A stretch of DNA of 64,000 nucleotides from an uncultured virus (IMG/VR IMGVR_UViG_3300042400_001066) (Duplodnaviria; Heunggongvirae; Uroviricota; Caudoviricetes). The DNA lies in the IMG/VR virus record IMGVR_UViG_3300042400_001066. The stretch is one strand, 5' to 3'. The position numbers and the translations under genes are program-made. Each line of letters begins with the position of its first letter. Within the stretch, counting starts at the first letter, position 1. Below the pieces are notes generated by a model. That model was not told where the DNA came from. It saw only the letters and a program-made list of their open reading frames with translations, and ran no database searches. Positions 5,243-61,630 of the stretch are shown piece after piece.

Positions 5243-5503
5243 ATGAAATTCCTAAGAGAAATGTTTTGCGATGACAATTCAATTAATGAAAAATCTGTAA
5301 TAGGATTTTTAGCTTTCATCATGATGTCTTTATTTGCAGTGGTAGACATTGTAACAGGATATTTAGGCAAAGAGCTGATTGTAAATGAATTTATATTTAC
5401 AGCATTTGAAGTGCTTGTATTAGGTTCATTTGGAATTGCTGCAACAGAAAAAATTACTAATATTATTAAAACTAACAAAAACGAAGAAAATGAGTCTGAG
5501 TAA
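5243..5503 (+). CDS. Holin-like protein (2 TM)
   Basis: 86 aa with two hydrophobic helices and a charged tail; overlaps the endolysin start. Confidence 0.6.
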   Translation: MKFLREMFCDDNSINEKSVIGFLAFIMMSLFAVVDIVTGYLGKELIVNEFIFTAFEVLVLGSFGIAATEKITNIIKTNKNEENESE

Positions 5504-6101
5504 ATTACAAGAAAAAATTGGGGTAACTGCTGATGGAGCGTTTGGCCCTGGAACAATGAAAGCTGCTATGGCTTTTTATGGGTTTACACCTGAGAGAGCT
5601 GCACACTTTTTTGCACAAACAGCACATGAGTCTGGAAACTTTAAAGCGTTCTCTGAAAACTTAAACTATTCTGCTGACGGATTGGTAAAAATCTTTGGCA
5701 AATACTTTACAGCGGCCACTGCCCCTAAGTATGCTAGAAACCCTGAAAAAATTGCTAACAAAGTTTATTCTTCTAGAATGGGCAATGGTGACGAAGCATC
5801 AGGAGATGGCTGGAAATTTAGAGGAAGAGGAGCTCTTCAATTAACTGGTAAATCAAACTATCAAGCATTTTCAGATTATTTGAATAACCCTGATATTATG
5901 AATAACCCTGACTTAGTTGCAGGTGAGCTTTCTTTTGAGTCTGCTAAATTCTTTTTTGATAAAAACAAACTTTGGGACATATGTGATAAAGGTGTAACCA
6001 AAGAAACTATTTTAGCCCTTACTAAAAGAATAAATGGCGGAACTCATGGTTTGGCTGATAGAGAAGAAAAAACCTTTAAATATTATACATACGTTAAATA
6101 A
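5490..6101 (+). CDS. Endolysin, glycoside hydrolase family 19, with short N-terminal peptidoglycan-binding-like segment
   Basis: Motifs HFFAQTAHESGNF, ENLNYSA, GDGWKFRGRGALQLTGKSNY and TKRINGG. N-terminal LQEKIGVTADGAFGPGT. ATG at 5490 preferred over the track's TTG at 5430. Confidence 0.9.
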   Translation: MSLSKLQEKIGVTADGAFGPGTMKAAMAFYGFTPERAAHFFAQTAHESGNFKAFSENLNYSADGLVKIFGKYFTAATAPKYARNPEKIANKVYSSRMGNGDEASGDGWKFRGRGALQLTGKSNYQAFSDYLNNPDIMNNPDLVAGELSFESAKFFFDKNKLWDICDKGVTKETILALTKRINGGTHGLADREEKTFKYYTYVK

Positions 6102-6562
6102 TGAAATACATATTTATAATTCTTATTATTTTACTAGGAGTATATATGTGGCTATCACATGATAAGTTTGTTCAAAACGAAGCTATTATACAAAGACTAG
6201 AAGACAGTTTGTCTAGAAAAGTAGACACCTTGATAGTAGAAAGAGATGTGGTAAAAGACCATTACATTAAATCTAAAGAGATTGTATATAAGATAGACGA
6301 AAGATACATTGCAGGCAAAGATTCTGTTTGTGATAGCTTAGTAGTAGCCCTAAAAACATCTCTTACAAACTGTGATAAAGTAATAGTTAAATCAGATACT
6401 TTAATCAAAACCCTTCTTGTGAGAGACACAGTTAGAGTGAAACATATACAATATTTACAGGCAAGAAATAAATTTTCTTTAATAGCTGGCCCAACCCTAT
6501 CCTTTACTCCACAAGGAATACAACCTGGTGTTGGTATTGCTTTTGGGCTAAAGATAAAATAA
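6101..6562 (+). CDS. Spanin-like lysis accessory protein
   Basis: Directly follows the endolysin (TAATG overlap). N-terminal TM helix, coiled-coil-like middle, C-terminal amphipathic beta strands (GVGIAFGLKIK). Confidence 0.5.
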   Translation: MKYIFIILIILLGVYMWLSHDKFVQNEAIIQRLEDSLSRKVDTLIVERDVVKDHYIKSKEIVYKIDERYIAGKDSVCDSLVVALKTSLTNCDKVIVKSDTLIKTLLVRDTVRVKHIQYLQARNKFSLIAGPTLSFTPQGIQPGVGIAFGLKIK

Positions 6563-6567
6563 AGCTA

Positions 6568-6597
6568 TTGACAAATAAAATAAATGTTGTATATTTG
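6568..6597 (+). promoter_or_regulatory. Bacteroidota primary-sigma promoter
   Basis: TTG at 6568-6570, 19-nt spacer, TATATTTG at 6590-6597 (matches the -33 TTG / -7 TAnnTTTG consensus). Confidence 0.7.
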
Positions 6598-6601
6598 TGC
6601 C

Positions 6602-6935
6602 AAATTTATCTCACTGAGACAAATTTCTAGTGCCTGACGTTTGAGGGGAAACCCTGGTTCATAAGATTTCACTAGATAGTTTTAAATAAGTAAGGACCTC
6701 CGAGGATTAACAATTCAGATACCTTCAGGGATAGGAGAGGAAAAAATAGGATCAATGACGTAAGAACTGGGCTTCCCAGTTTCCTATTAAAATACACGAT
6801 AGTAAAGATTCCTAAGTACAGAGATGTATATGGAAATTTATGAACGAACTTACCAATAGAAACAAGATAAATGCGTTTATTGCAAAGTATATTCTGATTT
6901 CCTAGATTTTTTTTCTCGGGAGAACCCTCTATTTC
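6602..6935 (+). ncRNA. Candidate large structured non-coding RNA
   Basis: No ORF of 60 aa or more. Hairpins with GAAA, GAGA and UGCG loops plus long-range complementarity (6657-6670 with 6833-6845; 6735-6751 with 6900-6917), directly behind a consensus promoter. Confidence 0.5.
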
Positions 6936-7018
6936 TTTAAATAATATACTATAATCTTTAGTACTATTAATATGCTCTAACTATGCCCAAAAAAAATCAC
7001 AAAAAATACATTTTTTTC

Positions 7019-7047
7019 TTTGAATTAAAAAAAAAGAAGTATCTTTG
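7019..7047 (+). promoter_or_regulatory. Bacteroidota-type promoter
   Basis: TTTG at 7019-7022, 17-nt spacer, TATCTTTG at 7040-7047. Confidence 0.55.
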
Positions 7048-7083
7048 CGTGAGATAAATATAAAGATAGAGCAATTCTATCGG

Positions 7084-7124
7084 ATACCCCTTGCTGATTC
7101 CCTTTGAGCAAGGGGTATTTTTTT
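7084..7124 (+). terminator. Intrinsic terminator closing a putative ~75-nt small RNA
   Basis: 12-bp perfect stem ATACCCCTTGCT/AGCAAGGGGTAT with an 11-nt loop, followed by a T-run. Confidence 0.75.
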
Positions 7125-7154
7125 ATAAAAACTAATAAAATCATAATTTTTTTT

Positions 7155-7203
7155 TACTTTTGTGAAAAATTATGTGCAATAAATAAAAAAAGCATTACTT
7201 TTG
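7155..7203 (+). promoter_or_regulatory. Tandem -7 promoter elements upstream of the phosphoesterase/tail operon
   Basis: TACTTTTG at 7155-7162 and again at 7196-7203. Confidence 0.5.
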
Positions 7204-7219
7204 CATAAAAAATATAATA

Positions 7220-8437
7220 ATGGTAGCACAAAAAACAATAAATAGATTTTTAAGTTGGAGAGAAAATAATCAAAATTATCTACAATTTGGAAGACCGAGT
7301 AAGAAAACTTTACTTAAAAGACTTAACAGAGAAGGGTTTAACCTTTGTCCAGAAGAATTAAATTTTTTACTCAAACACTCAGGAAAAAATTCTTTTGTAA
7401 AAGAAAAAATAAATGAAGGGACTAATGTATGGGTTCCTTCGGAAATGGTAGATACAGTTAAAGAACTCAATGCCATCTACCAAGAAAGTAAAAAACTAGG
7501 ATTAGATGTGGAAGACGTAAAGCATGGGTGGTTAAAAACACAAGATGCCTCAATGTTCTTCACTAATCCTTTATATAAGAAAAAAGAAGAGGATGGCTTC
7601 TATAATGAACTAATAGAAGATTTACAAAGTTTTTCTCCTTCTTTTCCTGTCATAAAAAGAACACCTAGTAGTGAGGGCCATTTACTAATTATTGACCCTG
7701 CGGATATACATGTGGGCAAATTAGCTATGGCTTTTGAAACAGGAGATGAATATAACACTAAAATTGCAGTAGAAAGAGTTTTAAAAGGAGTACAAGGTAT
7801 TTTAGACAAGACATCAGGATTTAATATTGACCAAATTCTTTTTGTAGGCGGTAATGATATTTTACATATTGATACTCCAAAAAGAATGACTACTTCTGGT
7901 ACTCCTCAAGATACAGATGGAATGTGGTATTCTAATTTCTTGGTAGCCAAGCAGTTGTATGTAGATGTATTAATGATGTTAATGCCAGTGGCAGATGTTC
8001 ATTTCACATTTAACCCATCGAACCATGACTACACTAATGGCTTCTTTTTAGCGGATGTTATTAAAACATACTTTAAAGATTGCAAAAATATAACATTTGA
8101 TTGTTCTATTGCACACAGAAAGTATTATAAGTATTATAACAACTTAATAGGAACAACTCATGGAGATGGAGCTAGACAAGCAGATTTGCCATTATTAATG
8201 GCACATGAAAGTAAAGATTGGAGCGATTGTAAGCATAGGTATATTTATACGCACCATGTGCACCATAAAACTGCTAAAGACCATATAGGAGTTACAATTG
8301 AAAGTTTAAGAAGCCCTAGTGCTTCAGATAGCTGGCACCATCGAAATGGGTATACAGGAGTACCAAAGGCGATAGAAGGGTTTATTCACCACAAAGAATT
8401 TGGACAAGTGGCAAGGTTAACTCACATATTTATATAA
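7220..8437 (+). CDS. Calcineurin-like metallophosphoesterase
   Basis: 405 aa with ordered motifs ADIHVG, GGND, SNHD, THGD and HHVHH, plus an N-terminal extension. Confidence 0.85.
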   Translation: MVAQKTINRFLSWRENNQNYLQFGRPSKKTLLKRLNREGFNLCPEELNFLLKHSGKNSFVKEKINEGTNVWVPSEMVDTVKELNAIYQESKKLGLDVEDVKHGWLKTQDASMFFTNPLYKKKEEDGFYNELIEDLQSFSPSFPVIKRTPSSEGHLLIIDPADIHVGKLAMAFETGDEYNTKIAVERVLKGVQGILDKTSGFNIDQILFVGGNDILHIDTPKRMTTSGTPQDTDGMWYSNFLVAKQLYVDVLMMLMPVADVHFTFNPSNHDYTNGFFLADVIKTYFKDCKNITFDCSIAHRKYYKYYNNLIGTTHGDGARQADLPLLMAHESKDWSDCKHRYIYTHHVHHKTAKDHIGVTIESLRSPSASDSWHHRNGYTGVPKAIEGFIHHKEFGQVARLTHIFI

Positions 8438-24465: not shown

Positions 24466-27400
24466 ATGACCAGAACTGAATTTATTAATAGTATAAGAAG
24501 TAAATATCCACAATATAATAATATTGATGATAATACTCTTTTTAATAAAATAATTGAAAAATATCCTGTATATAAAAATAAAATTACAGATACTCAAACT
24601 CCACAACAACAAACCACTCAACAACAAACTCCTATACAACAAACCACGGTACCTCCTAAACAAGAAGAGCCAGGGTTTTTTGAAGGAGTTAAGAATTTCT
24701 TGTTTGGAGATGAGGAAAAAAAACCTAAAGCTGAACTTATTAGTGAAAAGTTTGAAGAGCCGAATTTAAAACCAGAAACTCCCTATCCTTTCACTAAAAC
24801 AACTCCTATAACTGTACTAGATAAAGAATATGAGCAAAAAATAAAAGCTGTAGAGGATAAGTATAATAAGTTACAGGAAGACCCTAGTAATTACGCTGCC
24901 TATATTCCGAGTAGATTTGCTATTTTTGGGGCGGAACCATTAGTAAAAACATATAAAGTGGATTATACTGGACAAAAAGAACAAGAGATTTTAAATTTAA
25001 AGGCAGAAAAACTTAGAAGAGAGGGTAGAAATTTAACTCCTATAGAACAAGAACAAGATATTATAAATTATAAAAATAAAATTCAAGCAAATAAAACAAC
25101 GATTGAAACCAGAGCTAAGGAGAAAAAGAGTTATTTAGATGAAATAAGGAAGGTAGCAGGAGGAGATAGCCCCTCTTTATCTGATATTTTAAATGTAAGA
25201 GAAAATTTAAGCGATATTAATAAAAACGTGTCTAACATATTTAAAAGTGTTAAAAATACATGGGATTATAATACAAAAGTAGATGACGATATTTCACAAG
25301 CAGAAACACTTAAAAATGAGAATCAAAAGTTTTTGGATTATGTAAAAAAAGGGGTTAATCCTTTTAAAAATGCACCTTATAATGACGCAGAAGCAATGAA
25401 AAAAGCGGGTTCATATATTGACCCATCTATAGAATCTGGGTCTAAAAAAGCCAGAGAAAAAATAGGGGAAATTACCACAAAATGGTTCCCGACAGCGGAA
25501 AACCAAACTGATAATAGAAAATATGGCTCTATTGATATTTTAATGCAGGTTTGGAATCCTTTAATAGCTAAAGCTTTTCAAAAATTCACAAAAACAGAAA
25601 GTTTTAAAGGTTTAACTGCAGAACAACTTGAAAAACCTGCTATAGACAAATCATATAACCTGGCTGCTCACAACTTAGATAATAGTCTAACTCCGTTATA
25701 TGATAAAATACAGTCTGAAATTGGTATACCTAAGTCGGAAGTAATCGGAAAAATAGACCCATATTTGACTGCAAAAAAGCAGGTGGAAGAAGGTGCCTAC
25801 CCAAATATAGGTAAGTTATCAGAAAATGATATAAAACTATTTAATAATCCTGATTTTCAGAAGATAGCTGATACTTATAGTAAATCTGCTATTACTACAA
25901 TACGGGAGGGTAAATGGAGATTGTTATCTTTGGCTAACGTAGATCTTTATAATCAAGAAAAAGCCAATGCTTTTGGGACCATAAATAAAGTAGAAAATAT
26001 AGGGAGAAAAGAAGCAATCCGCACAGCTATATTAGATAAAAATGTAGAAGAACAGGGTGTTTTATCTAAAGCAGGGTTTGATAAAGCGTTGTATAATACT
26101 GCTTGGACTGCATTAAAAGCGGGGGATTTTACTAAAAACCAAACAGCGGCTGCAGCTCAAATAGGTACTCAATTAGCCACAGCCCCTTTTAGAGGAGGGG
26201 AGGCTTATACTCCTGAGTGGACTGAAAATATTATAAATAATACTGATTTATTTGATAATTTAACTCAGCAAGATAGTCATTTTAAACTATCTATATTTAA
26301 AGACGATAAATATATTGACAGAACATTGCCTACGGGAGATATAGTAAAGGTTCAATATACTCCTGAAGGTGATATATTAAATGCTTTTGGTGGGGGTATG
26401 GAATATACAATCAATAATCCAGAAGTAATGAAATGGCTTGCAAATGACTTTGAGACAAACAAAGACGAAATATTGGCAAACGGTAAATCTTTGTGGGAAA
26501 CTGAAGGTGGAAAAGCAGTATTTTTAGAGAATGTTTGGAATAGTATGGCTCCAGAAATAGTGGAGGAAATGCCATCTTTGTTAGTGGGGGCAACTGCAGG
26601 TAAAATTGCAGGAGCATTAATAAAAGGAGCGGCTAATGAGAGAAGATTAGCACAAGGAGCTGAGTTTATGATTAATGTTGGCACTAACATGACAGAGCAA
26701 TATCCTTCCATATACAAGAAATACCAAGAAGCTGCACAGGACAAAGACAATCCTTTTCCTGCATTAGCCACTTCTGGTGCTTTGGCATTAGGAACATTGT
26801 TTACATCTACCTTACAAAGTAAAGCAATAGGATTAACAGGGAATGATATAAACAAGGTGATAATGCCTGAAGCTATCGAAGCTACTGCTGAAGCAGTGAA
26901 AATCATTAACAAAGAATTTGCTAAAATTCCTGATATAACTTTAAGAGAAAAGTTAGCTAATGCCGCTATTAGAAAAGTAATGTTTCAGAATATTATGTCT
27001 TCATCGGGAAGATTCCTAAAAACAACTGGAAGAGTGGGAGCAGAAGAAGCTACAGAAGAAGTTGTATTAGAGCCTCTTATTAATGTTGCAGCTAATTTTA
27101 TTAATGAAAAAATAACAGGAGATAAAGCATATAACCAAGAAACTTTAAAGGATTTGAATTTTTTAAATCCAGATGTGGCAATAACTTCTTTTTTAACAGG
27201 TGGTACATTATCTACAGGAATGGATTTAGTTAAATCTATGTCAACTAAAGGTCCTTTTTCCAAAGAAGATTATTTAAAAACAGCTTTTGAAAATGAAGCT
27301 ACTTTTACTTCTATGGTGGATATTATGACTCAGAGTGGTAATAATAAATTTTCTGAAGCAGACCAAGCAAAAATGATGACTGATTATAACGCATTAAAAG

Positions 27401-30400
27401 CCTCTTATAATGCAAGAAAATCAGAACTTGGAGTTAATGATGAAGCTTTAGCTACCTTAAACTTTGCAAATCCTGTAATAAAAGGATTTGTAAAATCTAT
27501 TGGAGAGACAGAACAAAGTTTAGACAAAATTAATAGCGGGAGAACTTTTGATAATGCTATTATCAGACAAAGTTTAAATGAAAGAGAATTAGCTGAAAAG
27601 AAAATTGCTTTAGATGAAGAAGCTGCTAAAGGAAATATCTCTGTTTCCCCTGAAGGTACTTATAAAATAGTTGGTAGCAATCCTCTCTCCCAAGAATTAG
27701 GTAAACAAATTAGTGAGTATGAGCAACTTCAATTGAGTAATAACAATTTAACTTCCTTTATAGATACTTTTAACAAAGAAACTAAGCCTGTACAAAAGCA
27801 ATATATACAAGAGTTAAATCAAGTTACTTCTGAAGCTCCTGACCTTATATATGCAAAAAATAGTAAGGAAGGTAATTATGCATATAAGGCAGTAAGCAAT
27901 GCTATTATGGACAAACAAATGGCTATGAGCCAATTGGAAAAAACAAACGCTGAAATAGAGACTGCTGTAATAGATGGAACAGACACTAAAGAATTGCAAG
28001 TACAAAAGCAAAATTTAGAGAAAGCTATTAAGGCTAGTGATAAAACTATAACTACCCTTAAAAAGCAATATAAAGCAGGTAGAGTTAATACACAAAACGA
28101 GACCATAAATAGGTTTAATGAGTTTAGAACTGCCAGTTTAGTATTACAAGATAAGTTACAATCTATGGCAGGAGTAGATGCCACTGATGAAGAGATTGAG
28201 CAAAGTGAAATCAATGATGCTTATGCTGATTATTTAGATGCATATAAAGCTTTGAAAAAATCAAACTCTACCTTGAAAAAAGAATATGGAGTGGAAGTAT
28301 TCGACTCTAAATTTACACCTATAAGTTTGGAAGAATTCCAAGCTTCAAAAAATAATATTAAAGAAAAAAACGCACTTTCTAAAAAATTAGCAGAAAATAA
28401 AGGTACTTTAGGTGATGTAGAAAGATTGATAGGTCTTGAATATACTACAGGTACAAAACAACCTAAAGACAGAGTACAAGTTACTGCTCCTAGAAATAAG
28501 GAAGATATAAAAGCTATTTTAGACGATAAGGAGCAAGTATATGAGTATGCAAAAAGATTAGGGTTTAATAATAAAAAGTCTTATGCTCAAACCAAAAAAG
28601 CAGTGAGAACTTATTTAAATAAACAACTATCTACTCAAGATGAAACACGTTTAGAGGGAGTTTCTGCTGTTTTTGTTGAAAAAACCCCTAGACAAGTGAA
28701 TGGGAATCCTATGTTTGAGGTTGAAGGTGCTTTATACAAACCTGCTGGATATAGTGTTTCTCCTACTATGATGACTCAAGAAGAGAGAAATACGGTATTG
28801 ACAAATGCGGTTATTAGTGAAATAGCTAAACAAGTATTTAACAATTCATTATTACTAACGCCTTATAATGTATCTCAGATAATAAATAAAGTTATTATTG
28901 AATCTGGGTTTGATACAGAAGTAGGTATTGATAATAGAAGTTTACAATTTATAGCAGAAACAATATTAGCATTAAAAGCAGATTTAGATGCAAAAGGATT
29001 TGCTTATAAGTTTAATGATGATGTAGTTATTTCAAAGCTTTCTGAAGATGAAGTAAGAGGCTATGATGGCATAGCTACCACTCCTATATTAACAGTGGTT
29101 GATAATGAAGGAAATGTACACTTAATTGATTTTAAATCTTTTTCAGCAGGTAACTATGCTGCGTCAGCTTCAGGGTGGTCTAATAACCTCACTGAAATAC
29201 AAGCTATTTTCCAAGATAATGGAATAACAGTGGCTTCTATAAATGTTTTGCCTATTAGAGTGGATAATACTTCTACAACTCAAAATGGGTTAACTAATTT
29301 AAGTATTGGTAAAAATAGTTTTAATACAATTCCTAATAATGATAATGCTATTAGTAGAACATTATTGCAGCTTGCAACTAGCACTCCAATATTAACTACT
29401 TTGAAAGAAGAAGGGCTGTTAACCCAAGAAGAGGTAGAGTCATTTGATGAAATTCCTTTAGATGAGGCAGATGCCCCTATAACCCCTGCGGATAAATTGA
29501 AAGAAGATTCTTTGGTAGTACTTGAACCAGAAACTCCTACAACAACAGAGGTTCCTGTTACTGTTACGGAAAAAAACATGAAAGCAGAAGATAAAAATAA
29601 AGCCACTAAAGATACTCCTAAAGAGGTAATAGAGGGAGAAACCCCTAAAGGAGTATTTGCTGGTTTAGGAAAAGGTGTCTATATCCAAGTTAAAGAAACT
29701 GATGGAGGCTTCTATATGATAACAATATTTGGGGATACTGATCTTGCGAATAATATCGGAAAGAAAAGAAAGTCTTTAGAAGACGTGAGAAATATATACA
29801 AGGCTAACAATTGGTTTGCTCCAAAAACTTTTAAAGGTACAGGCGTATATCAATTAAGATACGCTGATACACTAACCCCTGTACTATCTAAAAATTATGT
29901 TGAATTTGTGCAACCTAATGGATTCAGCGAAGTAATTAATGATGTTGCAGTGGCTGCGGATATTATTGGGACAGAAGTAGAAATAGTGGAGAATAATGAA
30001 AATGGGAATAATGATAAGGATGAGGTACAAAAAGACTTTAAAAATAAAGCTTCTTTATCTATTGTAAATGCAAATGGTGAAAAAATTGCAATGGTTCCAC
30101 CTAATTCTCCTTTAAGAGAGAATTTAAAAATAACTAATAAAAAAGGACTTAATAGACTAGAGCCTACAATTGCTACAATAAAAGATATAAAATTTAACAA
30201 CTTTAATAGAAAACCTTATGAATTGTTCTCTGAATGGGAGAAAAAGGCACTAGCCTCTGGAGTATTAGTTCCAGGAGAGTATGAAATGGTTTATATTGGG
30301 GTGGAAAACAAGACACCTGTATTTAAAAATCAAAATGGAGTAGTAGTGCCTGGCAGAGTTCCTAAGAACCCAGAATTAGGGTCTGTTTATCTTTTTATAA

Positions 30401-33400
30401 CTAATTTCCCCACTAAGAATATCATGATACCAATGGGGACTCCTAAACTAGCGGAATTAGGATATACCATACAAGACTTAAAAACATTACTTGCTTTAAT
30501 TGATATAAATGAACTTACTAAAAATGAGGCTAATGCTGAAAGTATTTATACTAATTTTATAGGACAGTTAGATGCACTTATTAGAGATGGCAAATTAAAA
30601 GACCCTAAATTAAAAGATTTACAATTTTTACTTTCTAGTGATTTAGGTGGACAAGAATTGACTTTAAGAGCATCTTCAACTCAATTGAACATAGATAAAT
30701 TAGATGCAATTTATGCTTATAAAGATAAAGAAGATAAGGAAGGTGTTTTAATAAACTTTCTTTTAGATAGAATTATCACTATGAATGATGAGACTTTAGG
30801 GAGTCATAAAATAGAGGTAAATCCTGAGATACTTTTTGCTGATAATGCTTTAGTATTAGACAATATAAAAGCTAAACCTAAACCTAGAAAACAAGTATTA
30901 TCTTCTACAGTTTCAAAAAATAAAAATACTGATTTAGTTAAAGAAACTTATTATGAGTCTTTCATGACTGAGTCTGAGGATGGTAAAAACTATGTATTCT
31001 TCCATAAGTCTAATGCTACTCCAGAAGAGTTGGCTGGAGGTATAGACTCTCGTAGGTTTACTTCTCTTAGAACTTCTCGTACTGAGAAAGGTACTCAATA
31101 TGGGGTAGCTTCTTATTATACATTACCTACAGATGGGGAAAGAATGGTGGGGGGAGAAACTTATACAGTATCAGTTCCAAAGAAAAAAGTATATCCAATG
31201 GATTCTGACCCTAATGGATATAAATCAGCGGCAGAAGCTATGGTACCTGAAAACACTCCTTTTAGAATGGAGAACATTAAAAAGGAAATGGTTAGAATGG
31301 CTGCAGAAGATGGATATTTAATGGCTGTAGGTATGTGGTATTTTAATCCATCAGGAAATCCTATGTCAGGACCTGCTTTAAGGGCAGATGCTATTGTTTC
31401 CTTAGTTCCACAATCTATAACTTATAGAAATGCTACGGAAAAGCAAATTGACCATCCAATGAAAGAAAGAATACAAGCACTGGATGAGTTGAAAACAATA
31501 GTATCTAAATTTGAAAATGAAAGAAACGCAAATCAAGATTATAAAGAAGGGTATTTTATGGCACAAAATACGAGAGTTGGTAAAATAATTCCTTCAAATG
31601 TTCAATTTGACACCATGGTGGCGGGTTTACCTGAAAGCATGAATAGTGATATAGAAAGAGCAAGAGAGTTGGTAAATATGCTTAATGAAGTAGAAGAAAC
31701 TCCTTCTGCTAATAGTGAAGTTGCTTCTGCTACTATGAGTGAGGTAGTTGGGAGATTAAAAGAAACAGGGTTGGCTAACGAGGTCTTTGAAATGTCTAAT
31801 GCAGAGATTGAAGAGAAATTAGTTGAATTTGGTGCCGATAATGTTACTTTTACAACTGCAGGATTTGTTTATAATGGAGATGTTTATTTGAACATGGATA
31901 ATATGAATCTTGATACCCCTATACATGAGTTCGGTCACTTATGGTTATCTTGGGCTAAAAATAATCTTGGAGAAGCGTATGCAAGAGGTTTAGAATTAGC
32001 TAAGTCTTCCGAGGCTGATCCATATCGTCAATATGTAATGGAAACTCAACCTGATCTAAAAGTTGACAGTGATGCGTTTTTAGAAGAGGTATTGGCTCAA
32101 GCGATTGGAGATAACGGAGCTAGACTAGTGGAAGAAAATAGTACTAAAACTAAGTCTTGGTTACAAGAATTATGGGATGCTATTGGCCAAATGCTTGGAT
32201 TGTCTCAATTTACTGCCGATCAGATTATGGATATGACTATAGATGATTATGCCAAAGCGGTAGCAGTTGATTTGTTGTCAGGAGTTTCTATAAACAAAGA
32301 CGAAGTAATTCAATATGAAGAATTAATGAGACAAGCAGTGGCCATAATAGAAGGAAAAGAATCCCTTAATAAGTTTGGATTAACTGATAGTAAAAATGCA
32401 ACAAGAAAAGTTGGAGAAGCACTTCAAGCTAGACAAAGAGCTAAATACGGTACTATTGACCAGAAAGACAATTCACCAGAAGCAAGAAAAAAAATATCAA
32501 ACTGGATGGTAGATGAAGTAAAATATTTTGTTAATTTAATGGGTGAAAAAAGTGGCAAAGATTGGTATGGTGAATTATATCAAAAATCTTTAGATACAAT
32601 GGAAAAAGTATTTCCAGAAATGAAAACTGATCAGAATGCTAGAGATTTATTTACAATGCTTGTTGCGATAATGTCTGATGGACAGAAAGTTATGACTAAT
32701 TTTAAATTAGCTTCATTTGCCTATGACTATTACAAGAAAAATGGAGTAATGCCTAAAACGGTTCCTGGTCAAAGAATGGCTTCCTTTGAAAACAATCTAA
32801 AACGAATAAATGATTTATTAAGTGAATACAATGGAGATATAGCAGCTATTAAGAAAGACTTAATGAATGTTAATTCTATTGAAGAAATTAATAAAAAAAG
32901 GAAGACAGAAGGACTAGATCCCTTAACTACAAATTGGCCTACAAGCTTTAAAGCTCCATTTGCATCATCTGTTTTTGGGCCTAAACTTGGGATGTTCTAT
33001 GCAAATTTATCGGGGAATGAATCTTATCCTACACTAGACAGATGGTGGTCTAGAACTTTTAATAGGTACCGTGGTACCTTAATTCCTGAAGTAAATAGTG
33101 GGTTTACTAAAAAAGGCGAAGCTATTGGGCTTGATAGACTTAAAGAGTTATTAGGTACTCCAGCAATGACAAATGAAGAAGCTTTGCTTGCTGCCAAGTC
33201 TTATAGAGACTCATACGCAGCTAAAGGGTATAGAAACGGGTCTGATATTGAAAAAGCAGCAAATTCTATATATAAAGCAGCTTTTGAAAATTTAAATGAC
33301 GTTCCTTTTACTAAAAAAGACCGTCAATTTATGTATGACACAATATCTGAGTCAGTTAATAAATTAAATAAACAAGGCTATGATTTAACTATTGCAGATG

Positions 33401-34488
33401 TACAAGCTATTCTTTGGTATTTTGAAAAAAATCTTTATAAAACTTTAGGGGTTAGAGCTAAAATAGAAGGAATTAGTTATGAAGATGCCGCAAATTATAC
33501 CTATGATAAGTGGAAAAAATCAGGAAATAAATTTGATTATACTATTAGTCAAAATGAAGAGGGGCAAGCAGTAGAGGATGCAGATGAAGTTATTGAAGAA
33601 GAAAATGCAGAAATGAAATTTGAGGAAAATAAACAAGTACAAAAATCTGTAGTAGTAGCTCCAGGAAATAGATTATTTAATAATCCATTATTAGAGGCTA
33701 CAACAATTGCAAATAAATATAATGAAGAAAATGGTTTGGCACCAATGGTAGACAACACCATCACTAAAATTGACAAACCTTTTGCCACTAGACTTTCAAA
33801 AACTTATGATGAGATGGTAGCCACCCCTTTTGAAGAAGAGACTCAGGAGGCCTATAAAGCATTAGTTGAAGAAACGATTGCCCAACATAGAGCCATTTTG
33901 GCAGAAGGGTATAGAGTAGAAATGAGTACTTCTGAATACGATAATGCTCAAGAAATGATTGATGATTTGAGAGAGAATAAAAGAATGAAAATTTTCTCCA
34001 CAGAGGCTGGGTTTGGTGACACCCCTATTACAGAAGAACAAAGAAAGGAAAATCCTTTACTACAAGTAACAGAGTTTAAAGATGCAAATAATGTTCCTCT
34101 ATTAGCAAATGATGTTTTCAGATTTGTACATGATTTCTTTGGTCACGCAAAACTTGGTAATGGATTTGGACCTGTAGGGGAAGAAAACGCTTGGAGAGTT
34201 CACGTTCAAATGTATAGCCCAACTGCTAGAAAAGCTATAACATCTGAAACTAGAGGACAAAACTCTTTTGTTAATTTCTCAGGAATAAATGATGAAGCCT
34301 TTAAAGTAAGAGACGAGGCAAGAAAGCTAAGAAAAGAGGGTAAATTAGCCGAAGCTAAAGTCCTTTCAGACCAAGCCTATAAGATGATGAAATTTGCTGA
34401 CCAAAAAGTAGGAATATTGCCAGAATGGGCTTATAAGATTCCTTCAGAAAATCTTGAAGATACTACTACAATTCCTGACTGTGTCTAG
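24466..34488 (+). CDS. Giant polyvalent ejection protein (degenerate PD-(D/E)XK, ART-like, zincin, HhH-like and HDxxGH domains)
   Basis: 3340 aa. N-terminal EF..IRSKYPQY..IDD; VVDNEGNVHLIDFKS (~29095-29140); FFHKS..ASYYT (~30990-31120); DTPIHEFGHLW (~31915-31945); GPKLGMFYANL..PTLDRWW..QAILW (~32975-33420); FRFVHDFFGH..GEENAW..ETRGQNS (~34120-34270). Confidence 0.7.
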   Translation: MTRTEFINSIRSKYPQYNNIDDNTLFNKIIEKYPVYKNKITDTQTPQQQTTQQQTPIQQTTVPPKQEEPGFFEGVKNFLFGDEEKKPKAELISEKFEEPNLKPETPYPFTKTTPITVLDKEYEQKIKAVEDKYNKLQEDPSNYAAYIPSRFAIFGAEPLVKTYKVDYTGQKEQEILNLKAEKLRREGRNLTPIEQEQDIINYKNKIQANKTTIETRAKEKKSYLDEIRKVAGGDSPSLSDILNVRENLSDINKNVSNIFKSVKNTWDYNTKVDDDISQAETLKNENQKFLDYVKKGVNPFKNAPYNDAEAMKKAGSYIDPSIESGSKKAREKIGEITTKWFPTAENQTDNRKYGSIDILMQVWNPLIAKAFQKFTKTESFKGLTAEQLEKPAIDKSYNLAAHNLDNSLTPLYDKIQSEIGIPKSEVIGKIDPYLTAKKQVEEGAYPNIGKLSENDIKLFNNPDFQKIADTYSKSAITTIREGKWRLLSLANVDLYNQEKANAFGTINKVENIGRKEAIRTAILDKNVEEQGVLSKAGFDKALYNTAWTALKAGDFTKNQTAAAAQIGTQLATAPFRGGEAYTPEWTENIINNTDLFDNLTQQDSHFKLSIFKDDKYIDRTLPTGDIVKVQYTPEGDILNAFGGGMEYTINNPEVMKWLANDFETNKDEILANGKSLWETEGGKAVFLENVWNSMAPEIVEEMPSLLVGATAGKIAGALIKGAANERRLAQGAEFMINVGTNMTEQYPSIYKKYQEAAQDKDNPFPALATSGALALGTLFTSTLQSKAIGLTGNDINKVIMPEAIEATAEAVKIINKEFAKIPDITLREKLANAAIRKVMFQNIMSSSGRFLKTTGRVGAEEATEEVVLEPLINVAANFINEKITGDKAYNQETLKDLNFLNPDVAITSFLTGGTLSTGMDLVKSMSTKGPFSKEDYLKTAFENEATFTSMVDIMTQSGNNKFSEADQAKMMTDYNALKASYNARKSELGVNDEALATLNFANPVIKGFVKSIGETEQSLDKINSGRTFDNAIIRQSLNERELAEKKIALDEEAAKGNISVSPEGTYKIVGSNPLSQELGKQISEYEQLQLSNNNLTSFIDTFNKETKPVQKQYIQELNQVTSEAPDLIYAKNSKEGNYAYKAVSNAIMDKQMAMSQLEKTNAEIETAVIDGTDTKELQVQKQNLEKAIKASDKTITTLKKQYKAGRVNTQNETINRFNEFRTASLVLQDKLQSMAGVDATDEEIEQSEINDAYADYLDAYKALKKSNSTLKKEYGVEVFDSKFTPISLEEFQASKNNIKEKNALSKKLAENKGTLGDVERLIGLEYTTGTKQPKDRVQVTAPRNKEDIKAILDDKEQVYEYAKRLGFNNKKSYAQTKKAVRTYLNKQLSTQDETRLEGVSAVFVEKTPRQVNGNPMFEVEGALYKPAGYSVSPTMMTQEERNTVLTNAVISEIAKQVFNNSLLLTPYNVSQIINKVIIESGFDTEVGIDNRSLQFIAETILALKADLDAKGFAYKFNDDVVISKLSEDEVRGYDGIATTPILTVVDNEGNVHLIDFKSFSAGNYAASASGWSNNLTEIQAIFQDNGITVASINVLPIRVDNTSTTQNGLTNLSIGKNSFNTIPNNDNAISRTLLQLATSTPILTTLKEEGLLTQEEVESFDEIPLDEADAPITPADKLKEDSLVVLEPETPTTTEVPVTVTEKNMKAEDKNKATKDTPKEVIEGETPKGVFAGLGKGVYIQVKETDGGFYMITIFGDTDLANNIGKKRKSLEDVRNIYKANNWFAPKTFKGTGVYQLRYADTLTPVLSKNYVEFVQPNGFSEVINDVAVAADIIGTEVEIVENNENGNNDKDEVQKDFKNKASLSIVNANGEKIAMVPPNSPLRENLKITNKKGLNRLEPTIATIKDIKFNNFNRKPYELFSEWEKKALASGVLVPGEYEMVYIGVENKTPVFKNQNGVVVPGRVPKNPELGSVYLFITNFPTKNIMIPMGTPKLAELGYTIQDLKTLLALIDINELTKNEANAESIYTNFIGQLDALIRDGKLKDPKLKDLQFLLSSDLGGQELTLRASSTQLNIDKLDAIYAYKDKEDKEGVLINFLLDRIITMNDETLGSHKIEVNPEILFADNALVLDNIKAKPKPRKQVLSSTVSKNKNTDLVKETYYESFMTESEDGKNYVFFHKSNATPEELAGGIDSRRFTSLRTSRTEKGTQYGVASYYTLPTDGERMVGGETYTVSVPKKKVYPMDSDPNGYKSAAEAMVPENTPFRMENIKKEMVRMAAEDGYLMAVGMWYFNPSGNPMSGPALRADAIVSLVPQSITYRNATEKQIDHPMKERIQALDELKTIVSKFENERNANQDYKEGYFMAQNTRVGKIIPSNVQFDTMVAGLPESMNSDIERARELVNMLNEVEETPSANSEVASATMSEVVGRLKETGLANEVFEMSNAEIEEKLVEFGADNVTFTTAGFVYNGDVYLNMDNMNLDTPIHEFGHLWLSWAKNNLGEAYARGLELAKSSEADPYRQYVMETQPDLKVDSDAFLEEVLAQAIGDNGARLVEENSTKTKSWLQELWDAIGQMLGLSQFTADQIMDMTIDDYAKAVAVDLLSGVSINKDEVIQYEELMRQAVAIIEGKESLNKFGLTDSKNATRKVGEALQARQRAKYGTIDQKDNSPEARKKISNWMVDEVKYFVNLMGEKSGKDWYGELYQKSLDTMEKVFPEMKTDQNARDLFTMLVAIMSDGQKVMTNFKLASFAYDYYKKNGVMPKTVPGQRMASFENNLKRINDLLSEYNGDIAAIKKDLMNVNSIEEINKKRKTEGLDPLTTNWPTSFKAPFASSVFGPKLGMFYANLSGNESYPTLDRWWSRTFNRYRGTLIPEVNSGFTKKGEAIGLDRLKELLGTPAMTNEEALLAAKSYRDSYAAKGYRNGSDIEKAANSIYKAAFENLNDVPFTKKDRQFMYDTISESVNKLNKQGYDLTIADVQAILWYFEKNLYKTLGVRAKIEGISYEDAANYTYDKWKKSGNKFDYTISQNEEGQAVEDADEVIEEENAEMKFEENKQVQKSVVVAPGNRLFNNPLLEATTIANKYNEENGLAPMVDNTITKIDKPFATRLSKTYDEMVATPFEEETQEAYKALVEETIAQHRAILAEGYRVEMSTSEYDNAQEMIDDLRENKRMKIFSTEAGFGDTPITEEQRKENPLLQVTEFKDANNVPLLANDVFRFVHDFFGHAKLGNGFGPVGEENAWRVHVQMYSPTARKAITSETRGQNSFVNFSGINDEAFKVRDEARKLRKEGKLAEAKVLSDQAYKMMKFADQKVGILPEWAYKIPSENLEDTTTIPDCV

Positions 34489-34603: not shown

Positions 34604-37600
34604 ATGGCTAAGTGCTCATTACCTAACGTAGAAAAAAGATTTAGAGAAAGTAACCCCCAATTAGCGGATAAGCTTAATGATATTGGCTTAAAGGTATTTG
34701 AAGATATTTCTAATTCAACCCTATTTGACAGAAAAGAGGGTAATTTTGTATTTAACGAAGAAGGCACTGAAGAAAGAAACTCTCAGAATGACTTTGTCAC
34801 TAAATTAAATACAGATTTAGGTGCCGAAGTAGTAAAGGCTTTAGAAAATAAAGTAAGTGTAGATGTCCTTCCTTTAGTGACAGAAGAAGATCTGATAGCG
34901 GTTTCTCAAATTGAAGGACAAGTTAACCCTGAATTAAAAGATGTGGAGTTGCAATACAATGATAAAGGGGAACATCTTGCACCTAATGGTAAGCCAAGTA
35001 ATTTATCTGAATCGGAATCTAAATATGTAAGGTCAAAGGGGTTTAAAGATAAATACGGAGATTGGGAGAAGGGGCAAGAAGCTACTAATCTTTTGTTAGA
35101 TAAAAAAACAGGTGAACCACTAAAGGTTTATCATGGAGTTAAAAGTAATCAGAAGTTTGATAAGTTTGAAAAAACAACCGATGTAGGGTTTCATTTCTCT
35201 CCAAATAAATCTATCGCATCTGACTTTGCAAGAAATGATGAAATCCGTCAAAGGTCAACAGAAGACGGTGAAATGTATGAACCTGTAATATATGAAGGGT
35301 TTATAAATACGAAGGATATTGAAGGCATTGAAGATTTAGAGTTATGGACTGTTCCTGATTTTAAAAAGTATTTAAACGGGCTGGCTAACGAAAATAATAT
35401 AAATTGGGAGTATGATACGAGAAAAGACAGAATACAGAATACGAGAGATTTATATTCAAAAATAAAAGGATTTAATCCTGATTTCAAAGCCTTACAATAT
35501 TTTAATGAGTACGAAGGAAGGTTTGCTAAAGGGAGTAAATTTTCTTACATTTTGTTTAACGATGCAGACTTTATAAGGGTTGACCAAAAAGCAGTAGAAT
35601 CCCTACTATCTAAAGAACAAACACCTGCATTGGAAGATGTAGAAGAATTTAAATCTTCAGAAGAGCTACCCGACTCTTTTTTAACATTATCAGATTTTGA
35701 AGAACCTGCATACACTCCTACAACTCCAGAGACACACCCTGAGAGAGTAGCACCCTTAGCCCCTGAGCCTACTAAATCTATCCCTCAACAGTGGGCTGAA
35801 TATACTAACTTAAAAGATAGAACAGATTTAACTCCTGATGAAGAATTAGATTTAGCTGTTTATAGAGCTAAGTTTGATATGTTTGACAGTCCTTCTCAGT
35901 ATGAGAAAGTTATGTCAGACCCTACACCTAAAGCTTTTGTTTCTTTTAGAGAAAAGAATTTAGAAAAATTATTACTTAGCTTTGCTGACAAATTTGGTAT
36001 CACAATTGCCAATATTGAAGATTTTCAAAAACAATACTTTGAAAAGACAGGTAAATTTATACCTGCTAATGGGGTGGCTAATTTGTTTGAAAAAGTTATC
36101 TATGTTTCTGAAGGAAATACAGATGCTCTTACCGAAGAGGTGGCTCACTTTATTATAGCTATGTTGCCTAAAGATGGGGAGCTTTACCAAAACTTAAAGC
36201 AATACATCTCAAGAACAAGGGAATATGAATTGTTTTATGACAAGTATTTGGCCCAGTATGACGGAGATGTAGATAAGACAGAGGAAGAGATAATGGGTAA
36301 AGTGTTTAAAAATGCTTTACAAGATAAAGAAGAAACGGTGCCTTTATCAGTTAAATCTGTAGTAAAAAGAATTATAAACTATATTTCTGATTTATTTTCA
36401 GATGATAAAATGGAATACTTAAATTCCTTAAATCAGTTGAAGAAAATGTTTTTCAGTGAAAATTTAGCAGAAGGATTGGATGCTGCTAATATAAATTATG
36501 ACGAACTATACCAATTAAATTTCGAGATTACAGGAAAGGAAAACGATGCTGTTTTAAATGAAAGATCTGAGAAATTTGATTTAGGTGCAAATCTCCTTAT
36601 AGAAAACTTAGAAAATACCTTGTCTAATATTAGACAACAAGCTATAGAGTCAAACCAGAAAAAAGCCTTAGACTCCTCCAATTATTTATTAAATATATTG
36701 GCTAAAAAGACTGAGCAAGATGCAGATAAAGCAAAGATTTTATCTAGTATGGTGGTTTCTTCCGTTGCTACTATAAGACGTTTACAAGATTCTTTCAATG
36801 AATTTGATAAGTTAAATATACCTAAAACATTAGAAACAGATTTTAAAAGAGATAATTTAATTAAGTTAAGCTATGATGACTATAATAAATCATTGTCAAA
36901 ATTAGCGAGTTATATAAATTATTTACAATCTTTATACTCTCTTTCAAAATCAATAGAAAGCACTTCCAAATTAATGAAGTTAGAGTCTAATGATATGATT
37001 GCATTTAAAAAAATTATTTATGATTTAGACCCATCAATAACAGAGAACGATGAAATTATAAAAGCTTTCGATTTATTAGATGGGGAGGGAGTTAAGGTTA
37101 TGGCTGCAAAGATAGAAAGCATTTATCTTAAAAATGTAAAACAAATTTTAGATATTTATATGTCTGCTTTGAGTACAGAAGACCAAAAAAGATTTTTAAA
37201 TTATCAAAATGAAGTTGATTTTGCTAATACAGATGCAAAAACTATTGCAGATAAAAATAATAATATAATAGACTATTCTAAAGGAATATTTAGCAATATA
37301 AAAAGTTTATTTAGCAAAGGAATTACTCCTGTAACCATGCAAAATGATACATTTATACAGAGTGTAGATAGATTTGTATCGGCTATGGAGCAAATGGGAA
37401 AAGAAAGAGCTTCTAAGGAAGTTGCGGAAGTTCAAAAAATTGAAAATAGATTATATCAAAATGGGGCTAACGCTCAGAATCAAGATTGGCTTTCAGAAAA
37501 AGATGATAAAGGGAGGTCTACAGGCAACTTAATAACTAAGTTAAATTTCTCTAAATACGCCAATTTAGCAGCAAAAAATCTAAAAGATAAATTGCGTAAC

Positions 37601-40600
37601 CTACCTTTTGCTAGTAATGCCCAAATCCAAGGTTTACAAAAAATAGCATTTAACTCTCCTAAACAAGTATTTGATTCTCTTGGAGAATTATTAAAAGATA
37701 ATAAAATAACTCAAGAAGAATTTGACCATGCAAAAAATTATTTAATGGCTGAAAAAGCTTTATATGATTTAGAGCATACCACTCCAAATTATACTTCCAC
37801 TACACTAAGTAACAATAGTTTAGATGCGTTAAGAAACTATATTGACAGAAATATAGTAAATGTTAGAGAAGCATTAAATGATCCAAACTTTGATTGGACA
37901 AATGATGAAATAGAACTTATTTCTGATGACTTTGGGGATTTGGAATCTGCTCTGGAAGAGTTAATATCCGAAAAAAGAGCATTATTAGAAGAAAAATATT
38001 TTACTGTAGATGAAGATAAAAGAGTTCTGCTAAAAGCAGATGGTACTCCTGACTTAGACAAAAATGGTAATGAAAAATTAAACCCTATTTATAAAACTGA
38101 ACTTGATTTTGTAGAAGGACTTCTAAATAAATATAAGTATAAAATAGGGTATGCTACAGATACTGATGGAAATTTTTATCCTGATAAGATAAACATAGAT
38201 GTATGGGGGGATGAATTTTTGTTTGAATTATCCGACTCTCACCCTGATGCTAAAGAATACGCCAACAAAGAGTACTTAGACATAGAAGAGAAGGCTGCAA
38301 AAGGAGATGCTCTAGCTGTGGCAAAGATGGACATGGTTAACTACATTAAAAAATGGAATAAACAAAATAACCTTCCTTCTAATTCTTTACCTAAAGGGTC
38401 TAAAAAAGACTCTGAGTATTTACAAATGTTTGGTGACAAAAGATTTATAAATATTTTTGGAGTAAATTTTGATGTAGCTAAAATAATTACTCAAGTAGTA
38501 ATTCCTTTTGCAGGAGTGGCAAACACTCCAATGCTATTTGGAATAGCGGCAGGATTAGTAAATCCTTTGACACTAGGAGTATCTTCTATGATTTTTTCAT
38601 ATTTTTTCTACAATAGAATAGCAAATCAAGTTGTTAAATTTATATCAATATATGTAGATACTCGTGGTAGAATAAATGATGTTAAAGGTTTGAAGAGAAT
38701 GGCAGTTGCTTTAGCTAAGTCATTAGGGGTTTATAACAAAGCTCTACAGTTTGAGCTGAACAAAGACGATAATATTATTAGTACAGGAGACCCTGAAAAG
38801 TCAGAATCTGTGATAAGTAAAAGGGTAGACCTTTGGCTAAAGAATATGTTTCATAAGATTTTTCGTGCTGTAGATGCAAAACAAGCTAATAAGAAAAACA
38901 AAATAGACGTTATTCCTAGAAAATATACAGAATATATTGAACCAGCGTTACGTTCCACCCAATACTTAGATAATTTTAAATCTTTCATATACGCCAATAA
39001 AGAGTATGAAAATAAATCTATGTATGAAGGAGCTATAAGAGCTATGAATGATTTATATAGAAAAAGAGAGGATAAAGAAGGAAATATTATTGGAGACGAT
39101 TATTTAGAGGCTATTTACATTGATAGATATTGGTATAATAAAATATATCCAAATTCTTTTGCAATGAAATTTATTAGAGTGCTGGCAGCTCAAACAGGTT
39201 TCAACCAATTGACTGGTAATATTAATACGGGTGTAAAGAATATTCTTACAGGTATTAGTATGATTTCAGCAAATGGTGGGTTATTAGCCACTATGCCTGC
39301 TATAAAAGATGCTACAATATACTCTCTTAATATGCTTTTATTAGCAAAAGGGAAGAATTCACGGGTAGCTCTTGAGCAAAATAAAATTCAAATGATTAAA
39401 AAACATTTGAGATCAAGTAGTTTTGGGGGCATTGTTGACTTTGATTATTCTGATTCTTCATTGGTACAAAAATTAAGGCTGAATAACGGAAAAATAGTAA
39501 GTGAGTTAGGAGAGTCTTTTATTAGTAGTGTTCTTGTATATAAATTTTTAAGAGACACAAAACTAATAGATGAGAATGGTAAAAAAATTGACATTATTAA
39601 GCATCTAACCATAAAAGATGGAAGGCTTTCCTTTGATGACAAGGTTGCTAAGAAAATATATTTCAATAATATTAATGAAATACAAAAAGCAGAAGACCTA
39701 CAATTAGATCCTGGGTATGTAAAAGACATCAATCTAAGGGCAATTGTACCTAAAAATTTGCAGAAAGAGGCTTTAGTGCCTTTAGAAATAGATTTCTACC
39801 TTAATAGAACCCTACTCCAAAACATAGATTATTTTAGACAAAGGTCTCAGGGTGTTTATAATATATTGTTAAAACCTAGAATATCCACTACTGCCATTGG
39901 TACCGCTTTGTTTATGTATCAGAATTATGTATTACCTGGAGCATATACAGCACTCGGGAGAAAGAAAAATAATCCAAACTTAGAAGGTAGTGAAGAAGGA
40001 TTTATAATTACACTAGCTAAAGTGTTAGGAAGAGGTGTGGGCAATAGATTTAAAGATAAATTATCCCCTGATAGTGTCAATAATATTATGAGACTAAATA
40101 ATATTAAAACAAAAGGATTGTTAGAAGACTTGGGAGTATTATCAAATGTATTTTTATATTTCTCAAAAAATAAAAATATAGTTACACAATCTTTATTAGA
40201 AGCTGCAGAATCACAAGAAAAAGCAATAAAATTTGCAGAAGAACAAGATGCAATTGTAGCTCAAGGGGGAGAGAGAAAAGAAGGCCCAGCTTATTATGCA
40301 GGATTTAAGGGTAAAACTAAAGAAGAAATCTTTAAAGAATTATTGATAGAAGCCAATAAGCAACAGAGATTGAATCAATATGAAGCAGATAACTATAAAA
40401 AAGTGGCGAGCATTTTAGCTATGTTTCTTCTTTTAAAGGCTGCATTGAAATTTGTCTACCCGCCTCTAGAGGAGGAAGAAGTTGCTACATACATGGCTTC
40501 TGTAACTGAAGTTGTATCAAGTGAACTTTTGAGAACTTGGGTTCCTTTTTTAGAAGGAAGACTTGGATTTTCTTGGAATTTTAACCCAGTGGGAATAAAA

Positions 40601-41044: not shown

Positions 41045-41047
41045 TAT

Positions 41048-41078
41048 AAAAAGCCTCTCCGTTAAGAGAGGCTTTTTT
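41048..41078. terminator. Bidirectional intrinsic terminator between the convergent late and early modules
   Basis: AAAAAGCCTCTC-CGTTAA-GAGAGGCTTTTT at the strand switch. Confidence 0.85.
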
Positions 41079-41123
41079 ATTTACCATAATTCATCTTCTA
41101 TTATAATTTCCATATATATAAAT

Positions 41124-41345
41124 TTAATCTTCATCAAAGTTTCTTTCTCTATATTCATCTCCTTCAGATAGATCATTGAAAGGGCAATGTTTGCATGAAT
41201 TGTTGCAGCATCTGCCCTTGCGAAGGTGGTATTGTTCAGTAAATACCAAATTTCCTTCGTTCCAATAAAATTCGTCAGCTTGTAATTTAGTTTTTTCTTT
41301 AAAAATTCTTTGAGACTCTAGCTCTTGTACCCAATCTTGTTTCAT
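41124..41345 (-). CDS. Small Cys-rich protein (DUF5522-like)
   Basis: FYWNEGNLVFTEQYHLRKGRCCNNSCKHCPF motif. Start at ATG 41345 (MKQDW) preferred over the track's 41393. Confidence 0.65.
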   Translation of the reverse strand: MKQDWVQELESQRIFKEKTKLQADEFYWNEGNLVFTEQYHLRKGRCCNNSCKHCPFNDLSEGDEYRERNFDED

Positions 41346-41349
41346 AATT

Positions 41350-61602: not shown

Positions 61603-61630
61603 TCTTTTATAATTTAATGGGTTAAAAATT

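Follow-up and report, generated by a model that had tools for sequence, protein, structure and literature searches.

Positions 6568–7125 of a 64,000-nucleotide (nt) stretch of DNA from an uncultured virus (IMG/VR record IMGVR_UViG_3300042400_001066; Caudoviricetes), hereafter the window, contain what we consider a gene for a structured non-coding RNA. We put a probability of roughly 0.9 on the gene being real, optional, and plus-strand and on its tertiary-folded RNA belonging to a class outside Rfam. A preliminary description, made from the sequence without database searches, had proposed an undescribed, promoter-driven structured phage RNA at this position. Comparative analysis bears out that proposal: no Rfam family matches the locus, covariation is strand-specific, and the 5′ domain of the RNA is more conserved than the flanking genes.

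Homologues were collected by three routes. Searching with the protein encoded downstream gave 80 loci, 6 of which have the region; three 19–21-nt motifs queried against IMG/VR matched 17, 17, and 16 contigs, all from the same set; and a motif search of JGI metagenomes returned 10 matches, 7 of them true. The others (L132, L136, and L138) were rejected as chance matches inside a GC-rich coding region. A total of 63 loci collapse to 14 distinct sequences, all from one lake-phage lineage, which fall into the window type, a ~91% identical group, and a ~78% identical group. Model R1 of the RNA scores 368–408 bits in these 14 homologues. The DNA of the region occurs in lake and freshwater metagenomes, and the RNA is single-copy in each of three CheckV-complete records (106–140 kb).

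Compared with the two most divergent homologues, the window is 0.97–0.98 identical at 6641–6700 and 0.83–0.93 at 6701–6760, as against 0.58–0.75 in the upstream open reading frame (ORF) and 0.52–0.60 at 6881–7000. L107 and L134 combine a nearly unchanged 5′ domain with divergence on either side of it, in the promoter and the 3′ half, a pattern that, on sequence comparison, fits selection better than transfer. One-base indels between homologues disrupt every reading frame and, with no ORF longer than 41 amino acids inside the gene-free gap (6563–7219), led us to reject a coding reading.

Searches beyond the lineage returned no further copies. The region 6400–7300 had no blastn match among 50,697 phage records, and one 20-mer had 0 matches among 185,579 prokaryote species (one genome each), a result that excludes near-identical copies only. 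Model R1 found nothing in 74 further loci that surround relatives of the downstream gene (top noise score, 20 bits), in 12 slot loci that lack the RNA (E ≤ 10), or in 69 loci retrieved with a degenerate pattern for the receptor hairpin (best score, 10.9 bits; 80 of 103 stretches listed, minus 11 already-known contigs). The nearest virus record (G001), a 45%-complete fragment, contains no copy.

The fold was derived with RNAalifold, run on 10 and then 14 sequences with consistent results, and the model was fixed in window coordinates. Pairs were tested on a structure-blind MAFFT alignment (A4), with helix P6 omitted since MAFFT misaligns an A-run there. On A4, pairing at the 61 model pairs holds in 99.8% of 610 cells, versus 33–52% when partners are slid by 1–3 columns; double-sided changes occur at 6 pairs, versus 0 in every slid control; and the covariation score was reached by 0 of 500 shuffles. 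Results on the model-fitted alignment A6 agree. Checked directly, P6 appears in two versions, AUAGGA/UCCUAU (10 of 14 sequences) and ACAGGA/UCCUGU (4 of 14), which differ by a seventh compensatory pair. The homologue collection and covariation check advised in the preliminary description yielded 14 distinct sequences and seven compensatory pairs, one each in P1, P6, and P7 and four in P8. Of 10 distinct sequences, 4 have CG at 6767/6779 in P7, 2 have UG, and 4 have UA. This C-G to U-G to U-A series, an A-U to G-U change at 6629, and seven invariant G-U pairs are signals specific to the plus strand. Taken together, the alignments show that the constraint is on RNA, and on the plus strand, and they establish how several of the helices fold.

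The hairpins listed in the preliminary description all occur in the sequence at the coordinates given there, and several have comparative support. The stem TCTAGTG/CACTAGA (6626–6632/6670–6676), which encloses AGGG-GAAA-CCCT (6644–6655), is supported by the wobble change, whereas compensatory changes support AACTGGG-CTT-CCCAGTT (6765–6781) and TACA-GAGA-TGTA (6817–6828). The hairpins at 6602–6626 and 6918–6927 (GGG-AGAA-CCC) are also present; both are possible alternatives to helix P1. The hairpin ATAAA-TGCG-TTTAT (6867–6880) exists in the window but is not conserved, as one pair is broken in 4 of 10 distinct sequences. The two long-range pairings did not survive comparison. A 13-bp match between 6657–6670 and 6833–6845 shows no compensatory change and has four pairs broken in 2–5 of 10 distinct sequences; we reject this pseudoknot, the 3′ strand of which belongs instead to the covarying local helix P8. 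Positions 6735–6751 and 6900–6917 are 76% paired, which does not exceed what shuffles and slid controls give.

A number of observations count against this assessment. A folding energy no better than that of shuffled sequence was named in the preliminary description as a refuting outcome, and it is the one observed; the plus strand has a minimum free energy (MFE) of −71.9 kcal/mol with a z score of −0.60, and 31 of 100 shuffles fold as well (minus-strand z score, −1.39). The covariation-supported fold reaches −52.8 kcal/mol (−65.1 extended) versus an MFE of −72.9, and the shuffle test fails because the supported fold is not the MFE fold. Helices P2a, P3, P4, and P5 never vary and are thus predicted but unproven by covariation. 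Most double changes lie on one deep two-clade split, hence few independent events, and P1 and a local 5′ hairpin (6609–6612/6616–6619) are equally supported, with one compensatory pair. The mosaic sequence of L126 indicates that recombination occurs here and could inflate apparent conservation. Six metatranscriptome runs contain a small share of 6000–7700, and each of the four in which contigs were placed on the region has one (6701–6918, 6472–6696, 6624–6859, and 6634–6796), with 6000–6471 and 6919–7700 uncovered, which carries no weight as evidence. These contigs lend weak support to transcription; their depth is 2–4, they carry no strand or end information, the libraries may contain DNA, and one contig starts at 6472, upstream of the promoter. 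Regarding the energy test, we judge from the alignments that comparative covariation overrules its failure.

Architecture of the RNA and its proposed transcription unit

Table 1. Features of the candidate RNA gene and its surroundings, in window coordinates.
Feature	Position	Strand	Details
Promoter P1	6568–6597	+	TTGACA-16-TATATT (6568–6595), alternatively TTG-19-TATATTTG ending at 6597
Structured RNA core	6602–6940	+	~320–340 nt, approximate ends; model R1, covariation, RNA-library contigs
Helix P1 (5′–3′ closing helix)	6609–6618/6915–6923	+	5′ strand UCUC-A-CUGAG, 3′ strand CUCGGGAGA
P2 domain	6626–6632/6670–6676	+	Large invariant internal loop; hairpin 6644–6655 with GAAA
GAAA tetraloop	6648–6651	+	Stem 6644–6647/6652–6655, P2 hairpin
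P3 (long-range)	6679–6683/6859–6863	+	RNAalifold consensus, all pairs invariant
P4 (long-range)	6690–6694/6849–6853	+	RNAalifold consensus, all pairs invariant
P5 hairpin	6697–6730	+	10 pairs, 9-nt loop AACAAUUYA
Purine-rich joining stretch	6731–6745	+	Contains invariant AGGAGAGGAAAAA
P6	6746–6751/6782–6787	+	Encloses P7
P7 hairpin	6765–6771/6775–6781	+	Inside P6
P8 receptor arm	6797–6846	+	Pairs 6797–6798/6845–6846; helix 6802–6805/6838–6841; receptor; tip
GAAA receptor motif	CCUAAG 6811–6816/UAUGG 6829–6833	+	In P8
P8 tip helix	6816–6820/6825–6829	+	GNRA loop 6821–6824
Variable linker	6864–6914	+	Includes unconserved ATAAA-TGCG-TTTAT hairpin; identity to divergent homologues 0.53–0.60 at 6881–6940
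Spacer	6941–7019	+	AT-rich, poorly conserved (identity 0.52–0.60)
Second promoter-like site	7020–7047	+	TTG-17-TATCTTTG; both boxes kept in 10/10 aligned homologues
Intrinsic terminator	7084–7125	+	11-bp stem 7084–7094/7108–7118, 13-nt loop, T7
Likely −7 box of gene 7220–8437	7198–7205	+	TACTTTTG

We propose that 6568–7125 acts as a self-contained accessory transcription unit, in which a host-type promoter would drive a non-coding plus-strand RNA with a ~320-nt core that folds into a multi-helix, tertiary-stabilized body (Table 1). The closing helix P1 would hold the P2 arm with its GAAA tetraloop, and the two long-range helices would enclose three more arms, one of which carries an 11-nt GAAA-receptor motif beneath a GNRA-capped tip. 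Within this model, P1 has 9 pairs, with 98.9% of cells paired and one pair that appears as GC, GU, or AU; CGGGAGAACC in its 3′ strand is invariant amid an otherwise variable 3′ region. The P2 helix and the hairpin it encloses are 100% paired. P5 pairs are invariant, and the three G-U pairs among them can form on the plus strand only. Given one-sided U-to-C changes, the purine-rich joining stretch may form a pseudoknot with 6667–6669.

None of the 14 sequences departs from the GAAA tetraloop or from the CCUAAG/UAUGG receptor, and the stem above the receptor covaries. The receptor is flanked by U6810-A6834, C6811-G6833, and C6812-G6832, with G6816-U6829 as the closing pair, and the tip loop of P8 is always a GNRA tetraloop (GAGA, GAAA, or GUGA across homologues). 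By sequence, these elements agree with the GAAA tetraloop/11-nt receptor motif. For the 11-nt receptor concept and for the receptor letters CCUAAG_UA(U/C)GG, we relied on PMC11571812 and 10.1101/2024.03.11.584472, respectively. Tetraloop and receptor point to a compact tertiary fold, in which their docking is a prediction.

The consensus promoter TTG-19-TATATTTG of the preliminary description holds up as the best sigma-70-type match within 6000–7700, with 11 of 12 positions matching; we take this form to be the Bacteroidota −7 type motif. On the plus strand, TTG-N17-21-TANNTTTG occurs at only 4 sites in the window, two of which fall in the gap (6568–6597 and 7020–7047). The motif is not enriched window-wide (10 sites versus 8.4 ± 2.9 in shuffles); therefore, the promoter call rests on position and conservation; all 10 aligned homologues retain the −33 and −7 boxes. 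Transcription would start near 6602–6604. A conserved T-rich tract near 6925–6940 is the candidate end of the core, with 7125 as the alternative, and the primary transcript may extend to the terminator there. All 10 sequences keep the terminator stem fully (100%) paired, and two of its pairs are compensatory. The terminator loop (7095–7107) keeps AUUCCCUUU in all 10 homologues, and the stretch from the second promoter-like site to the terminator stem is not conserved. The terminator-loop segment may itself constitute a separate small RNA.

An accessory slot and comparison with known RNAs

Among relatives of this phage, sequence comparison shows that the RNA gene is optional. The 153-amino acid ORF directly upstream of the gap (6101–6562) led to 27 loci, of which two were cut short and 25 were usable. 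The RNA occupies the slot in 15 of them. Five others have a 1247-nt gap, with a 371-amino acid ORF in the contig of L007/L155; the same ORF is found in L166; L167 is without the RNA; and L169–L171 contain a different non-coding filler of 583–627 nt. The segment is thus missing from 10 of 25 slots and also from L008, where the flanking genes lie ~125 nt apart and exactly 6599–7121 is missing relative to the window. Given that this interval begins immediately past the −7 box and stops where the terminator ends, the cargo of the slot is the whole body of the transcription unit.

Relatives without the RNA retain its surroundings. The downstream gene follows the slot in L007/L155 (80% protein identity) and L008, 7122–7164 and the region beyond it are also kept, and the next gene has its own ATG in all. 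In both L007 and L008, the upstream ORF terminates at an unchanged ...KIK/KLK stop codon. Owing to such relatives, a replication origin, a packaging site, an intron, and a leader of the downstream gene are all unlikely; the first two were among the refuting outcomes named in the preliminary description.

The alternative contents of the slot have features of their own. The 371-amino acid protein (L007, 1774–2889, the same contig as L155; L166, 3983–5041) consists of two repeated modules, PAS-like by eye, with a hydrophobic C-terminus, and its gene begins 20 nt past the stop codon of the 153-amino acid ORF. The fillers (L171, 3963–4560; L169, 3960–4560; and L170, 2658–3295) open with the conserved promoter and a ~100-nt hairpin RNA with a terminator; the remainder is nearly unalignable among the three and has no Rfam match. 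In L091/L168 (a 35,080-bp contig), ~1.25 kb of extra sequence lies between the 153-amino acid ORF and the RNA promoter, for a gap of 1904 versus 657 nt.

The RNA has the attributes of a stand-alone non-coding RNA gene, namely its own promoter and terminator, no coding capacity, and constraint at the RNA level, but does not match a catalogued family. Rfam 15 (4227 models), a check suggested in the preliminary description, gave no match at the locus at gathering thresholds; the sole match in the window was a tRNA at 61631–61726. At E ≤ 10 on 6400–7300, nothing fell inside 6675–6995, two sub-threshold chance rows appeared at the 5′ edge (16–19 bits versus thresholds of 60–100), and the remaining rows fell on the terminator region. 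ARAGORN detected no tRNA or transfer-messenger RNA (tmRNA) gene in the region, in agreement with what had been judged by eye. A group I intron was rejected given the lack of a covariance-model row at E ≤ 10, the lack of flanking exons, and the same upstream stop codon in relatives without the RNA; no P3–P7 group I pseudoknot core emerged from RNAalifold, although no targeted search for one was made. A riboswitch or leader was likewise rejected, as no ORF lies between the RNA and the terminator and two more promoter-like sites precede the gene at 7220. We found no publication in the literature that describes this RNA.

Known systems offer partial parallels. In P4–P6 of group I introns, a GAAA tetraloop docks into an 11-nt receptor. 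Our RNA resembles the Tetrahymena-type P4–P6 in its invariant GAAA and its CCUAAG...UAUGG loop closed by G-U on a separate arm, but differs in its location outside genes, its lack of exons, of a group I model match, and of an identified P3–P7 core. GOLLD and ROOL are phage-associated and, like OLE, are ~500–800 nt in size. With these three our RNA shares a stand-alone, highly structured form, tertiary motifs, optional occurrence in phages, and an unassigned function; it differs in being ~320 nt, in matching no Rfam model, and in its limitation to one lake-phage lineage. As described in PMC11571812, the c-di-GMP-I riboswitch (Vc2) is a small aptamer with a tetraloop-receptor clamp. Similar to Vc2, our RNA places tetraloop-receptor motifs beside invariant internal loops, a possible ligand pocket; unlike Vc2, it is more than three times larger, matches no Rfam riboswitch, has no expression platform or regulated ORF, and possesses its own promoter and terminator. 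PMC10690425 reports candidate structured RNAs (csRNAs) of 29–151 nt from IMG/VR intergenic regions and draws on the same kind of data source and the same evidence (covariation in phage intergenic regions). Given those lengths, the whole RNA cannot be one of these candidates, although a fragment might be. The searchable supplements of that survey held no match to a motif or two contig numbers, with the alignments lying outside that search.

Candidate functions and rival explanations

For the function of the RNA, we tentatively propose binding in trans. The invariant internal loops (6633–6643 and 6656–6669), together with the purine-rich junction, would serve as the binding site for a protein of the host or the phage, or for a small ligand, and the stable folded RNA would act as a decoy, sponge, or scaffold in host takeover or counter-defense. 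We regard this role as possible rather than probable; when the gene and the binding or decoy mechanism are scored as a single blended proposition, our assessment leans modestly in favor.

A new ribozyme, self-processing or acting in trans on host RNA, is unlikely, with the P2 internal loops and purine-rich junction forming the active site and the tetraloop-receptor clamping the core. Such clamps hold together the cores of group I and II introns and RNase P, and the size, multi-helix junctions, GAAA/11-nt receptor pair, and second GNRA loop of our RNA would all fit. The near-invariance of ~100 nt, against ~30% divergence in neighboring genes, fits a catalytic core and a binding site equally. 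However, even relaxing to E ≤ 10 brings no match to a known ribozyme model, flanking exons are absent (the upstream ORF keeps its stop codon where the RNA is missing), and the RNA-library contigs, which could hardly show one, display no joint, cleavage end, or loose end. Self-assembly in the manner of GOLLD, ROOL, and OLE, with the GAAA loop docking into the receptor of another molecule as a dimer or multimer, is a decidedly unlikely account. It would draw on the phage-borne, optional, and ornate character of the RNA, on the presence of one tetraloop and one cognate receptor on different arms, and on the self-complementary AAUU of the P5 loop; PMC12286853 reports homo-oligomers for GOLLD, ROOL, and OLE, which are large ornate RNAs of bacteria or phages with no assigned biochemical function. 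Our RNA is nevertheless far smaller and matches none of the three in sequence or model, and intramolecular docking explains the same motifs.

The remaining explanations place the function in the DNA or in control of the adjacent gene. A riboswitch-like leader or processing signal governing read-through into 7220–8437 is highly improbable. The RNA does lie upstream of that gene on the same strand, and the conserved terminator could serve as an attenuator, but ~280 nt containing the spacer, the second promoter-like site, the terminator, and a third −7 box separate core and gene, the same gene persists where the RNA is absent, and no expression platform overlaps a start codon. That the segment is a DNA element (a replication origin, packaging site, or protein-binding array) with incidental hairpins is barely credible, even though it occupies the largest non-coding gap of the window, includes an AT-rich stretch after a promoter, and precedes a gene with a homologue at the record start in unrelated Flavobacterium siphophage records. 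Only one strand can accommodate the G-U pairs and the wobble intermediates, compensatory changes preserve RNA helices rather than DNA motifs, an essential origin or packaging site would not be optional, and in none of the three complete records does the segment lie at an end.

Beyond the locus itself, there is an outside chance that the RNA represents a new functional class that phages swap in and out as a counter-defense or takeover module, whether as a sponge, a ribozyme, or a self-assembling particle. The sponge form would amount to an oversized riboswitch-like aptamer without an expression platform, directed at a ligand or protein. If true, promoter-equipped slots for RNA cargo would be the RNA counterpart of protein anti-defense islands. 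Large RNAs with true tertiary architecture are rare, and new classes have so far brought new biochemistry (ribozymes, riboswitches, and RNA-only assemblies). At ~320 nt, the RNA is compact enough for direct structural work, and the textbook tetraloop-receptor pair eases folding tests. The natural plus/minus variants within one phage lineage, with a protein gene or nothing in the slot, provide a ready genetic contrast for investigating function.

Genomic surroundings and other observations

The gene-free gap spans 657 nt and, as the preliminary description had noted, is the largest in the window when ORFs of at least 90 amino acids are counted; the runner-up is 41045–41614. The same description had called the stretch more GC-rich than its flanks, which is correct in direction but modest in extent: GC content is 0.385 at 6600–6799 versus 0.32 upstream and 0.24–0.28 downstream. 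Annotation with PHROGs assigned the upstream genes to a tail-fiber protein and a GH19-type endolysin (5490–6101), and the downstream genes to an exonuclease/metallophosphatase-like protein (7220–8437) followed by virion proteins. The 7220–8437 protein (plus strand) shares 59% identity with the first gene of the Flavobacterium siphophage records. Its relatives, found in 1970 phage records, differ over the N-terminal 60–90 residues, and the gene is widely exchanged.

Among the matches listed for the DNA polymerase of the window, most are from crAss-like phages (~29% identity). Together with giant ORFs, these matches suggest that the source is a distantly crAss-like lake phage. The giant ORFs, 24466–34488 (3340 amino acids) and 34604–41044 (2146 amino acids), lie on the plus strand after the virion-protein genes, a layout similar to that of the blocks for virion-packaged RNA polymerase in crAss-like and N4-like phages. 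Weak noise matches of model R1 occur at 34723–36101, within a giant ORF. The tRNA match at 61631–61726 (minus strand; 39.2 bits in Rfam) is a 96-nt tRNA-like gene in which the variable arm is long and the anticodon loop oversized. ARAGORN gives it a four-base anticodon with no amino acid assigned, and it overlaps the program-made ORF 61336–61692.

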